Shown: one piece after another, positions 46,601 to 49,600 of the stretch
Position numbering within the stretch: position 1 is the stretch's first letter
Layout: every line of letters starts with the position of its first letter
Virus record (IMG/VR): IMGVR_UViG_2913112809_000002
Length of the DNA stretch: 64,000 nucleotides
Source of the DNA: a virus
Taxonomy: Duplodnaviria > Heunggongvirae > Uroviricota > Caudoviricetes
Strand: one strand, 5' to 3'
Made by a program: the position numbers

Positions 46601-49600
46601 GTTTCTTGCAAAAATTGAAGACGAGCTTGAGCTTGATGGAACCGGAAAAAAATTCCGGTTAAACAATAACCAGACAAGAACAGCATATTACGATCTGGAC
46701 TTCGACCAAATGATGCTCGTTGGCATGAGAGAGTCTAAGGCTGTTCGGCGTTCTGTGCTGGCAAGACTTAAAGCGATGCACGGTATACAAATTCCTCAGA
46801 CCTTACCTGATGCATTGCGATTTGCGGCAAAATTGGCAGAGCAAAAAGCAGAGCTGGAAAATAAACTGGCAATAGCGGCACCGAAAGCTGAATTTGTTGA
46901 TAATTATGTTGAGGCATCCGGCCTGATGGGGTTCAGGGAGGTTGCTAAATTGCTCGGTATTAGAGAAACCGATTTCCGGCTGTTTTTGCTGGAGAACGGC
47001 ATAATGTATCGTCTTGCCGGAAAAATGACGCCTTACTCACATCACCTGGATGCTGGTCGTTTTAGCGTGAAAACCGGAGAAGCAGGCAATGGTCATGCTT
47101 TTACACAGGTTAAGTTCACTCCAAAAGGCATTCAGTGGGTTGCTGGCTTGATCGCTGCTTGGAGAGCCACCGCAGCATGAACACGAAACAAACATACTGG
47201 AAGTTTTTACTCATATGGATAATTCCATTCTTGTGGGTGCGGCCCAATTGATTACAGCCATTAAGGGATAAACATGTCGGATAAAATGGTAAAGCTGGCA
47301 CAGATCCTCTGTGTGATAACTGGTCTTTCATTTTCGGTAATGCTGGTGGCTATTTTCATTTCCACAGCCTGGATGGCGTTGAGTTCATCCGGATTGATTG
47401 GTGGATAGCGAGATGAAGCGGAAGCACTGGACACACAGAATGCCTCGAGCGGCGGCAAAATGGGCACTGGTAGCGATACCGGTGCCTTTTTTATTGGCGG
47501 GATGCGTCAGCCTAGATAAGGCGCGTCAGCTTTTCGATACGGCTTCTCAGGTTTGCCAGCTTATTGATGGCGTTCGGCGGTGCACACAGAATTGATCGCT
47601 TGTAAGAGTAGAATATTTTGCTGAAAAATGAAGGGTGCGCCAGCGTCCGGAAAGCATGAAATTCTGTGTTTGTGGCTACTCAATAAAATAAATTCTTTCT
47701 GTCGCCGCGAATACTCAAATGTTGATCAGTGCCCGGTGCGGCGACGGGCTTCGATATCAGGAGACGATGATGGAAGCAACAGAAGATGATCGTCATCCTG
47801 GTTGTCCGGTATTTGCCTGCATGAAATTACCGGAAGGCGCAGTCGTTACTAAGTAACAGGCATTACAGCAGCCCTTCTGTGAGGGGCTGCGATAATGCAA
47901 CACAGGAATAAAAACCGGCCAGGGAGAATCCGTTAAAGGTCTGCCGGTGGCGAAAGATAGCCAAGGCGTCAACTTACGCTATTGCTCATGGTGATGCAAT
48001 GCATCGCCCTAATGAAGTTAATAGATCTCTGATTTATCTCTGCGCGTCGTATCGTCGCCGTATTCCCGCATTAACAGAGACCGCAGCCCGATGGGAAGCT
48101 CTTCTGCGCGAGTGTGCAGGAATAATCAAAAACGATGCACACCGGGTTTTTACCGCGCTATTGATTCGCGGGTTTGTCCCTCATGCTCGCCAGTCCTGTG
48201 CGAGGTTGGAAGAAACAGGGCATGTATTCAGGAGCGTGCGACCGTGGTCGCACGGTATCTTTGTCAGGAGGTTGTGATGAAAGAGTCGCAGAAATTTAAT
48301 TCAAAAATGGAACGATTCAGTTCTCCTGAGCGAGAGGCTTACAACATGCATTCATTGAGTGCCTGTTGTAATATCGCCAAACATTAATCAGGTGCACGAG
48401 ATGTCGGCTAATACTGACCCTGACGAAATGTGGCGCTGCTTTAATCTGAAAGATGGTGCAGACGACCTGTAGTTCGCATCCATTCCTGATTACCCTATTC
48501 AAGTTGATGAGACAGAAACATGACAGCTGCTAAAGAGCAGATTGAATATGAGCTAAATGTATTCTTCGCGTCCGCCCTTGGTGATGTGTTTAAAAGTTGC
48601 CGACTGGCTGAAAGCGTATTGGATTACCAGATTTCTACTGTTAGTTTTCCAACGGAAAAAAACGCCTGGCTGGAGCTAGGTGAATTACCCGTGATTATCG
48701 AGTTGTCTAACGGACGTCGCTTTGAGATTAGTGCGTCTGAATGGTTGCAAATCACACCGCTTTAAATTAAGCCCGCTGCCCACCTTGGCTACAGGCATAC
48801 GCTTAGTGGCTGGGTCCTTTCCGGCGATCCGGCAGGCTACGGGGCGTCAGGCGCGCGGGTTTTCGCTATTTATGAAAAATTTCCGGTTTAAGGCGTTTCC
48901 GTTCTTCTTCGTCGTAACTTAATGTTTTTATTTAAAACACCCCCTGAAAAGAAAGGAAACGACAGGTGCTGAAAACGGGCTTTTTGGCCTCTGTCGTTTC
49001 CTTTCTCTGTTTTTGTCCGTGGAATGAACAATGGAAGTCAACAAAAAGCAGCTGGCTGACATTTTCGGCGCGAGTATCCGTACCATTCAGAACTGGCAGG
49101 AGCAGGGAATGCCCGTTCTGCGAGGCGGTGGGAAGGGTAATGAGGTGCTTTATGACTCTGCCGCCGTCATAAAATGGTATGCCGAAAGGGATGCTGAAAT
49201 TGAGAACGAAAAGCTGCGCCGGGAGGTTGAAGAACTGCGACAGGCCAGCGAGACAGATCTCCAGCCAGGGACTATTGAGTACGAACGCCATCGACTTACG
49301 CGTGCGCAGGCCGACGCACAGGAGCTGAAAAATGCCAGAGACTCCGCTGAAGTGGTGGAAACTGCATTCTGTACTTTCGTGCTGTCGCGGATCGCAGGTG
49401 AAATTGCCAGTATTCTCGACGGGATCCCCCTGTCGGTGCAGCGGCGTTTTCCGGAACTGGAAAACCGACATGTTGATTTCCTGAAACGAGATATCATCAA
49501 AGCCATGAACAAAGCATCCGCGCTGGATGAACTGATACCGGGGTTGCTGAGTGAATATATCGAACAGTCAGGTTAACAGGCTGCGGCATTTTGTCCGCGC

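Follow-up and report, generated by a model that had tools for sequence, protein, structure and literature searches.

Two small conserved genes downstream of a lysis region

The window analysed here is a 64,000-nucleotide (nt) stretch of the IMG/VR virus record IMGVR_UViG_2913112809_000002 (Caudoviricetes) that holds two prophages, segments A and B, and we examined two small genes, pep44 and lipo60, that lie between the lysis genes and the packaging genes of segment B (Table 1). The product of pep44, MSDKMVKLAQILCVITGLSFSVMLVAIFISTAWMALSSSGLIGG, has one long hydrophobic segment, and its gene is preceded by an AAGGGA Shine-Dalgarno sequence. The ATG of lipo60 follows 4 nt past the pep44 TAG, with the Shine-Dalgarno sequence GGTGGA on its 5′ side, and its product divides into a signal peptide, MKRKHWTHRMPRAAAKWALVAIPVPFLLAGC, and a mature part, VSLDKARQLFDTASQVCQLIDGVRRCTQN, of 30 residues with three Cys, counting the lipidated one; the lipobox, LAGC, occupies residues 28-31. 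A preliminary description of this DNA had reported a 44-residue hydrophobic peptide and a 60-residue LAGC lipoprotein with a mature part of about 30 residues and three Cys, and we found both exactly where it placed them. Both are also called as genes in the source assembly (GCA_005781185.1).

Conservation of the two frames in related prophages was one point on which the preliminary description had made its proposal depend, and both frames are conserved. The pairwise ratio of nonsynonymous to synonymous substitution rates (dN/dS) was 0.18 for lipo60 (53 distinct sequences, open reading frame (ORF) intact), with 0.15 for the mature part and 0.13 for the first nine codons, and 0.20 for pep44; two overlapping alternative frames gave 0.94 and 1.46. 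Since the first nine codons are constrained to this degree, the coding form is the long one, with its start at 47413. Both lipo60 and pep44 are real genes under purifying selection, beyond chance ORFs.

Each gene matched a PHROG family without known function (phrog_7528 for lipo60, E 1.6e-33; phrog_4906 for pep44, E 2.1e-20), and neither returned anything significant from Pfam, NCBIfam, PADLOC, PDB sequences or Rfam. For lipo60, no colicin lysis protein or other Pfam family appeared at E up to 1, and the NCBIfam model spanin2_1 scored 13.9 bits against a cut-off of 100. Homologs of lipo60 formed 115 protein clusters from Escherichia, Citrobacter, Salmonella and Cronobacter, and homologous DNA occurred in 352 of 5426 complete E. 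coli genomes. Just five phage records carry it, including phiP27 and phiSTEC1575-Stx2k, both deposited as complete genomes. A profile search of 1.84 billion representatives recovered 21 clusters, all belonging to one narrow family, and gave no bridge from that family to any characterised one. Divergent members retain the spacing C-x16-C-x8/9-C and an [ED]KAR motif despite very different DNA.

In E. coli, outer-membrane sorting of lipoproteins is governed by the Lol +2 rule. Residue +2 of lipo60 is Val, and V, A, T, S or G takes this position across the family without any Asp, so sorting to the outer membrane is expected. The 30 residues of the mature peptide are polar or amphipathic up to the terminal TQN, and its C-terminus lacks a hydrophobic segment; a unimolecular spanin of the T1 gp11 type was considered and ruled out, since lipo60 has no C-terminal transmembrane (TM) segment. 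Net charge of the mature peptide ranges from -2 to +3 and its hydrophobic moment from 0.30 to 0.42 (shuffle p 0.01-0.13). AlphaFold2, given 17 sequences, predicted an all-helical lipo60 with a mean predicted local distance difference test score of 67.6, a model whose low confidence and simplicity make it unsuited to a fold search.

lipo60 occupies the position of spanin genes in its lysis cassettes

We then drew related loci from IMG/VR, GTDB genomes and annotated records, mapped them by tblastn, and computed context statistics from 100 distinct loci with at least 2.6 kb of upstream sequence. In 99 of the 100 loci, lipo60 comes after one or two genes for holins and one for an endolysin of the M15 or GH108 type, most commonly in the order holin-holin-M15-lipo60 (49/100), where lipo60 comes directly after the endolysin; optional small genes stand ahead of it in some loci (a 93-residue unknown, the antirepressor Ant, p57/60 and pep44). 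No tblastn match to Rz, Rz1, LysB or LysC was found in any of those 99 loci, and no conserved partner resembling an inner-membrane (i-) spanin was seen within the 5-6 kb examined on either side of lipo60, which was the sole recurrent lipobox ORF across related loci. A divergent clade (Lelliottia and metagenomic contigs; 53-67% protein identity) keeps the holin-endolysin-lipo60 order with a third holin type.

For segment B itself, the preliminary description had seen no recognisable Rz/Rz1 pair, and our searches agreed: tblastn matches to Rz, Rz1, LysB and LysC fell just in the other prophage, at 20.5-22.0 kb of the window, and a lipobox scan of the window gave no credible lipoprotein besides lipo60 at 30-64 kb. 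Phage phiP27 carries the same holin-holin-M15 cassette with an unannotated lipo60 homolog and without pep44, and its L30 endolysin is 97% identical to the M15 endolysin of the window. A match to lipo60 in DH5alpha, taken as possible phi80, proved to be another prophage with a standard cassette.

Across loci, lipo60 begins 1-14 nt behind the preceding gene, with a GGTGG-type Shine-Dalgarno sequence inside the end of that gene, and is, as read from the sequence, translationally coupled to this preceding lysis gene. No promoter-like site was found near it, and its G+C content agrees with that of the holin and endolysin genes. The packaging modules that adjoin the cassette vary (Nu1/A, P27 TerS with HNH, ParB with TerS).

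lipo60 and Rz/Rz1 share one position behind the same small genes and were never found intact together. Either pep44 or p57/60 precedes Rz/Rz1, in Shiga toxin (Stx) phages and phage GER2, or precedes lipo60, which makes this an interchangeable slot. The sole locus among the 100 with both Rz/Rz1 and lipo60 is GER2, where lipo60 has decayed to a pseudogene that lacks a start and has three in-frame stops (locus L090, ~3989-4168), about 0.8 kb downstream of intact Rz/Rz1 and past an antisense heptose-phosphatase-like gene; p57/60 precedes Rz there. An O104:H4 Stx2a prophage (L170, 2501-2673) has the GER2 gene order, with an unannotated, 73%-identical match in the same place. The preliminary description had likened the position to the slot of bor in lambda; the relevant slot is that of the Rz/Rz1 spanins, with lipo60 coupled to a lysis gene, without a promoter-like site and of cassette-like G+C content. 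lipo60 closes this phiP27-type cassette and is its only product predicted to be directed to the outer membrane.

The small gene p57/60 encodes a 57-60-residue membrane protein with a C-terminal hydrophobic segment (phrog_4493/1115) and often lies directly 5′ of lipo60. We found it in loci L008 (2842-3015), L017 (5641-5844) and L090 (GER2, 2630-2782); it is not in this window.

The 5′ end of lipo60 resembles a LysB/LysC spanin locus

Profile alignment of the lipo60 family with LysC (PF23793) outer-membrane (o-) spanins by hhalign gave 96.9% probability and E 1.7e-10 over the N-terminal 34 columns, which hold an n-region HW[ST]HR.PR, the hydrophobic core and the lipobox. A Pfam search gave no PF23793 match for lipo60. 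Homology searches had been called for in the preliminary description, and they came out positive for the signal-peptide region of the LysC o-spanins and negative for Bor/Cor and for the mature domain. Homology of mature lipo60 to the C-terminal helix of LysC was considered and found no support: the register seen by eye (SLD...IR) was recovered by hhalign, yet at E 0.3-0.45. The n-region HWTHR.PR (47413-47450) is conserved at the protein level in the lipo60 family and in LysC, although the overlapping LysB frame, a possible source of constraint on it, is gone.

A frame overlapping the 5′ end of lipo60 continues that of pep44. It lacks a start codon, evolves neutrally, with the dN/dS of 1.46 given above, and, in a DNA alignment, resembles the LysB frame of the segment A locus, and we infer that it derives from a LysB-type i-spanin frame overlapping a LysC start. 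In the simplest history, an overlapped LysB/LysC locus would have lost LysB and retained a much shortened or replaced lipoprotein. LysC-type o-spanins (of the P2 LysB/LysC type) are outer-membrane lipoproteins, as lipo60 is predicted to be, and like it are encoded at the end of a lysis cassette. Their mature part has about 70 residues, a proline-rich segment and one periplasmic Cys, whereas that of lipo60 has 30 residues, no such segment and two Cys, and LysC has its LysB partner whereas the lipo60 loci hold neither LysB nor another i-spanin.

A terminator-like hairpin lies within the signal-peptide codons

A terminator scan identified a hairpin at 47462-47487, followed by T6, in codons 17-27 of lipo60, with a 10-11 bp stem and a tetraloop. 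It folds with a minimum free energy of -23.2 kcal/mol (z -4.3), a stability that none of 200 shuffles reached. The stem and T-run are nearly invariant, synonymous sites included, across clades with just 53-67% protein identity and also in the pseudogene of GER2, and the loop is variable (GCGA, GCAA, ACAA, ACCT, GTGA, GCGG). In a covariation test, 98.9% of cells were paired with zero two-sided compensatory changes, the same as in shuffles, so the structure is backed by conservation rather than by covariation. The hairpin probably stops non-antiterminated transcription and thereby restricts lipo60 expression to the late phase. A working terminator would confine both the mature lipoprotein and read-in to the packaging genes to antiterminated late transcription.

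A proposed role for lipo60 at the outer-membrane step of lysis

With a probability that we put at roughly 0.55, lipo60 is an o-spanin-derived orphan lipoprotein that acts at the outer-membrane step of lysis; its mode of breaching that membrane would probably be an unusual one. It would be transcribed late from the Q-antiterminated transcript, exported by Sec, lipidated and Lol-sorted to the outer membrane, where it would expose a peptide of 29 residues, two of them conserved Cys, that is mostly helical and moderately amphipathic. A peptide of this length would not reach across the periplasm, which makes a spanin-like bridge implausible and would place its action at the outer membrane itself: the periplasmic length is 29-30 residues for lipo60 alone and about 38 with the pep44 tail, below the minimum in the census of Kongari et al. 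(2018), where the periplasmic parts together comprise 62-300 residues (PMC6139136). The outer membrane would be permeabilised as it is by colicin lysis lipoproteins, and burst would follow once the endolysin had removed the wall.

Colicin lysis proteins are made as 47-residue precursors of 28-residue mature lipoproteins, are Lol-sorted to the outer membrane, permeabilise via outer-membrane phospholipase A and are held at a low dose by an upstream terminator (PMC2896534). lipo60 resembles them (e.g. ColE7 Cel) in the length of its mature part (30 versus 28 residues), in its predicted outer-membrane sorting, in being the last gene of an induced operon and in having a terminator-like hairpin on the gene's 5′ side. 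It differs in showing no sequence similarity to them, in its phage holin/endolysin context rather than a colicin operon, in its longer signal peptide (about 31 residues) and in a peptide that is predicted to be helical and has conserved Cys; it falls outside their family, with no NCBIfam match above noise and no Pfam match at E up to 1. Because of the colicin lysis precedent, and because lipo60 would not span the periplasm, we favour action of lipo60 alone at the outer-membrane step. That this action is specifically colicin-lysis-like is an analogy that we offer tentatively.

How spanin-less phages pass the outer membrane is, to our knowledge, known for one case, gp28 of phage phiKT. This disruptin is a non-spanin outer-membrane disruptor in a spanin-less phage (bioRxiv 10.1101/515445); it is cationic, antimicrobial-peptide-like and not a lipoprotein, whereas lipo60 is predicted to be lipid-anchored and has a charge of -2 to +3. 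Among phages of Gram-negative hosts, 91 of 677 genomes, about one in seven, have no recognisable spanin (PMC6139136). It is conceivable, if doubtful, that lipo60 represents a third phage route through the outer membrane of Gram-negative hosts, next to the spanins and the cationic disruptin. The agent would here be a helix of 29 residues on a lipid anchor, derived from an o-spanin whose inner-membrane partner was lost. Such a route could involve disulfide-linked oligomers formed via the two conserved Cys, at a dose set by the terminator in the signal-peptide codons. Should lipo60 prove to work alone, it would be a case of spanin genes degenerating into another mechanism, and the database entry now given as the shortest 'two-component spanin' would need correction. 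Protein release and antibacterial design would in that case also gain a tiny permeabiliser of the outer membrane.

The cassette is common, as its share of E. coli genomes indicates, and it occurs in toxin-converting phages, namely the Stx2e phage phiP27 and an Stx2k phage. It lies downstream of stx2 in phiP27 and phiSTEC1575. A further prophage, in E. coli UTAK-3, carries the cassette (L003, 2288-3506) just downstream of genes for a scabin-related ADP-ribosyltransferase and a subtilase-type AB5-toxin binding subunit, so that linkage to toxin cargo is repeated.

Several points weigh against an outer-membrane lysis role. Position and ancestry are the whole basis on which lipo60 would be assigned to lysis, its searches returned no Pfam family, PDB chain or defence model, and its mature part bears no significant similarity to LysC (hhalign E 0.3-0.45). 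Given its net charge of -2 to +3 and only moderate amphipathicity, detergent-like or cationic-peptide action is not evident, and a small outer-membrane lipoprotein would, unlike spanins, have no obvious means to await wall degradation. The spanins of lambda are dispensable in shaken cultures, so the cassette could do without an outer-membrane step and lipo60 may act otherwise. Finally, bor of lambda, an outer-membrane lipoprotein moron, also lies between the lysis genes and cos.

lipo60 could itself be a prophage moron of this kind, serving host interaction or superinfection exclusion in the manner of Bor, Cor or Llp by masking a receptor or altering the surface, and possibly shielding progeny from debris; we regard this as unlikely. 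It shares the position of bor between lysis genes and cos, and Min27 has bor after Rz. Llp has conserved Cys, as lipo60 does, and lambda Bor, phi80/N15 Cor and T5 Llp are all small phage-encoded outer-membrane lipoproteins, as lipo60 is predicted to be. Their genes are independently expressed or tail-linked, however, whereas lipo60 is coupled 1-14 nt behind lysis genes without a promoter of its own, and its internal terminator-like hairpin would block expression without Q. It also moves with lysis modules beside several packaging modules, which one would not expect of a receptor-specific exclusion factor, and decays where Rz/Rz1 are present. Pfam and PHROG searches matched it to no family of known function and showed no homology to Bor, Cor or Llp. 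The preliminary description had left three options open for the pair; comparison of loci speaks for lysis accessories, and neither entry exclusion nor host interaction gained positive support; lipo60 lacks Bor, Cor or Llp homology and travels with lysis rather than tail modules.

It is less probable again that lipo60 is a periplasmic-side regulator of lysis, influencing holin triggering, endolysin access or timing, with pep44 and p57/60 acting similarly. Membership of lipo60 in the cassette would fit such a role, as would the clustering of several optional small membrane genes ahead of it and the precedent of Lcc6 of phage LambdaSo (bioRxiv 10.1101/2024.01.23.576932). Yet a lipoprotein with a predicted outer-membrane anchor and 29 further residues is poorly placed to reach inner-membrane holins, and the three holin types and two endolysin types that accompany lipo60 leave no constant target in the cassette. 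The genes with which lipo60 is mutually exclusive are spanins, not any regulator.

A minimal two-component spanin, with lipo60 as the o-spanin and either pep44 or a 64-residue ORF of phiP27 as a small i-spanin, appears quite improbable. lipo60 is in part already recognised in this sense, since the supplement of Kongari et al. (2018) gives the homolog in phiP27 as an o-spanin (PMC6139136). That census treats phiP27 as a singleton of the 'separated' two-component type and, at 62 periplasmic residues (32 + 30), it is a length outlier, the shortest among 528: its i-spanin (record 20348-20542) has 64 residues, 32 of them periplasmic, and its o-spanin (record 20706-20861) has 51 residues with a mature part of 30 (PMC6139136). 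The listed o-spanin is a direct homolog of lipo60 (82% identical), and in the window a TM peptide, pep44, stands directly 5′ of lipo60, whose signal peptide is LysC-like. Against these points, the phiP27 i-spanin candidate (L001, 4170-4364 (+)) has a TTG start and no PHROG match, is absent from every other locus and runs antisense to a 90-residue ORF (L001, 4154-4426 (-)) with a full-length match to phrog_36812 (E 5e-20). This proposed i-spanin looks like a spurious, chance antisense ORF, and the comparisons indicate that the phiP27 entry describes an orphan lipoprotein rather than a two-component system. As for pep44, most lipo60 loci are without it, and in Stx phages it is found together with full Rz/Rz1; a pairing with it would supply about 38 periplasmic residues against the census minimum of 62, and in most loci the endolysin and lipo60 have no TM gene between them.

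The view that lipo60 is a vestigial, decaying o-spanin remnant in which selection keeps the terminator hairpin, suggested by the hairpin being the best-conserved part and retained in the GER2 pseudogene and by the relic of a LysB/LysC locus at the 5′ end, is very improbable given the dN/dS of 0.15 in the mature part outside the hairpin, the intact ORF in 53 distinct sequences, the Cys pattern and EKAR/DKAR motif kept in a clade with very different DNA, and the retained start codon and Shine-Dalgarno sequence.

pep44 belongs to a family found in front of spanin genes

Homologs of pep44 occur in 276 phage records, mostly of Stx phages, where they lie directly 5′ of Rz/Rz1 and are mostly unannotated (for example L002 2488-2640, and L087, L088 and L089 at ~2501-2632). 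They usually follow Ant, the order Ant-peptide-Rz being that of Stx phages, and thus stand between Ant (or R) and Rz. An annotated example of phrog_4906 is ORF50 of BP-4795, and these homologs are 58-72% identical to pep44, of the same size and in the same position; in Stx phages the next gene is Rz/Rz1, whereas here it is lipo60. The preliminary description had treated pep44 and lipo60 as a dedicated pair, a view that does not hold, as lipo60 occurs without pep44 in most loci and pep44 occurs without lipo60, next to Rz/Rz1, in those 276 records.

pep44 does not have the make-up of an i-spanin: only about 9 of its residues lie beyond the TM segment, leaving no sizeable periplasmic domain, and Stx phages carry it next to a full Rz. 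An i-spanin split between pep44 and the frame past its TAG, or made by read-through, was rejected: that frame has no start, is closed on its 5′ side in every locus and broken in some, and has a dN/dS of 1.46. Most likely, judging from its hydrophobic segment and gene context, pep44 is a separate inner-membrane lysis accessory or timing factor, which may have come in together with the Ant block. It would be comparable in kind to Lcc6 of phage LambdaSo, an extra small membrane protein of 65 residues that is required for lysis and acts at the level of the holin (bioRxiv 10.1101/2024.01.23.576932). The loci expose two small membrane-protein families that front spanin genes, pep44 and p57/60, and pep44 is present in essentially all Stx phages.

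Other genes of the window

The late region of segment B reads, in its 5′ part, TerB-like gene, TciB-like DUF3927 gene, PF16931 holin, PF05449 three-TM holin and M15 endolysin, and in its 3′ part, 93-residue unknown, Ant, pep44, lipo60, a truncated phiP27-L33-like ORF, Nu1 and terminase A. G+C content is 0.42-0.49 in the block of the 93-residue gene, Ant and pep44 and 0.51-0.58 in the holins, endolysin and lipo60; this lower G+C content suggests that the block is an insertion between the endolysin and lipo60.

Table 1. Positions of the genes and sequence features in the 64,000-nt window.
Feature	Position	Strand	Description
pep44	47274..47408	+	44-residue single-pass membrane peptide, phrog_4906; coupled to and directly 5′ of the spanin-slot gene
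lipo60	47413..47595	+	60-residue prolipoprotein, phrog_7528
lipo60, signal peptide	47413-47502		
lipo60, lipobox	47494-47505		LAGC
lipo60, mature part	47503-47592		30 residues
lipo60, stop	47593-47595		
Terminator-like hairpin in lipo60	47462..47497	+	Signal-peptide codons 17-27; 10-11 bp stem, 4-nt loop, T6 run
Non-coding relic frame	47412..47519	+	pep44 frame continued past TAG; resembles the part of LysB that overlaps the LysC start
Holin, Phage_holin_8 (PF16931)	44918..45313	+	First cassette gene; start per source record
Second holin-like gene, Phage_holin_3_7 (PF05449)	45303..45578	+	Three TM segments; Pfam/PHROG match
Endolysin, M15 metallopeptidase (PF13539; phrog_465)	45581..45958	+	Pfam/PHROG match
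Lower-G+C block between endolysin and lipo60, with pep44	46029..47180	+	93-residue unknown and Ant
93-residue unknown	46029-46310	+	phrog_33497
Ant	46485-47180	+	Antirepressor with KilAC domain
Lysis cassette of second prophage	20559-22725	-	Lysis genes of segment A
Holin of second prophage	22725-22522	-	
Endolysin of second prophage	22519-22022	-	
Rz of second prophage	22037-21588	-	
Rz1 of second prophage	21832-21641	-	Embedded in Rz
KilA-N gene	21369-20722	-	Downstream of second-prophage Rz/Rz1; C-terminus matches an Rz-like PHROG
LysC-type o-spanin	~20903-20559	-	PF23793; seemingly intact; follows the KilA-N gene

The TerB-like gene (phrog_632, 'tellurite resistance') and the 50-residue TciB-like DUF3927 gene (phrog_1470) lie at 44255-44829 (+), just 5′ of the holins, and the TerB-like gene recurs in many related loci. 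Downstream of lipo60, a 45-residue ORF (47719-47856 (+)) corresponds to L33 of phiP27 (115 residues) with an internal deletion, such that just both ends of L33 are left. A region near 48.84-49.03 kb, picked out by eye for its likeness to the left end of lambda, is presumably the cos region; we take 48840-49030 (+) to be nearly identical to the lambda cosB/Nu1 leader, with a different 12-nt cohesive-end site. A search for lambda cosN with up to 2 mismatches gave chance-level matches alone, because that 12-nt site differs from lambda.

In segment A, the C-terminus of the KilA-N gene is possibly a fused LysB remnant, and the signal peptide of the LysC that follows resembles that of lipo60; the KilA-N/LysC stretch would be a second, broken spanin locus beside Rz/Rz1. 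The same prophage encodes, at 4807-5148 (-), a 113-residue predicted lipoprotein with the signal MRGIIFLLAVFSAC, which belongs to phrog_3443, a family of unknown function.

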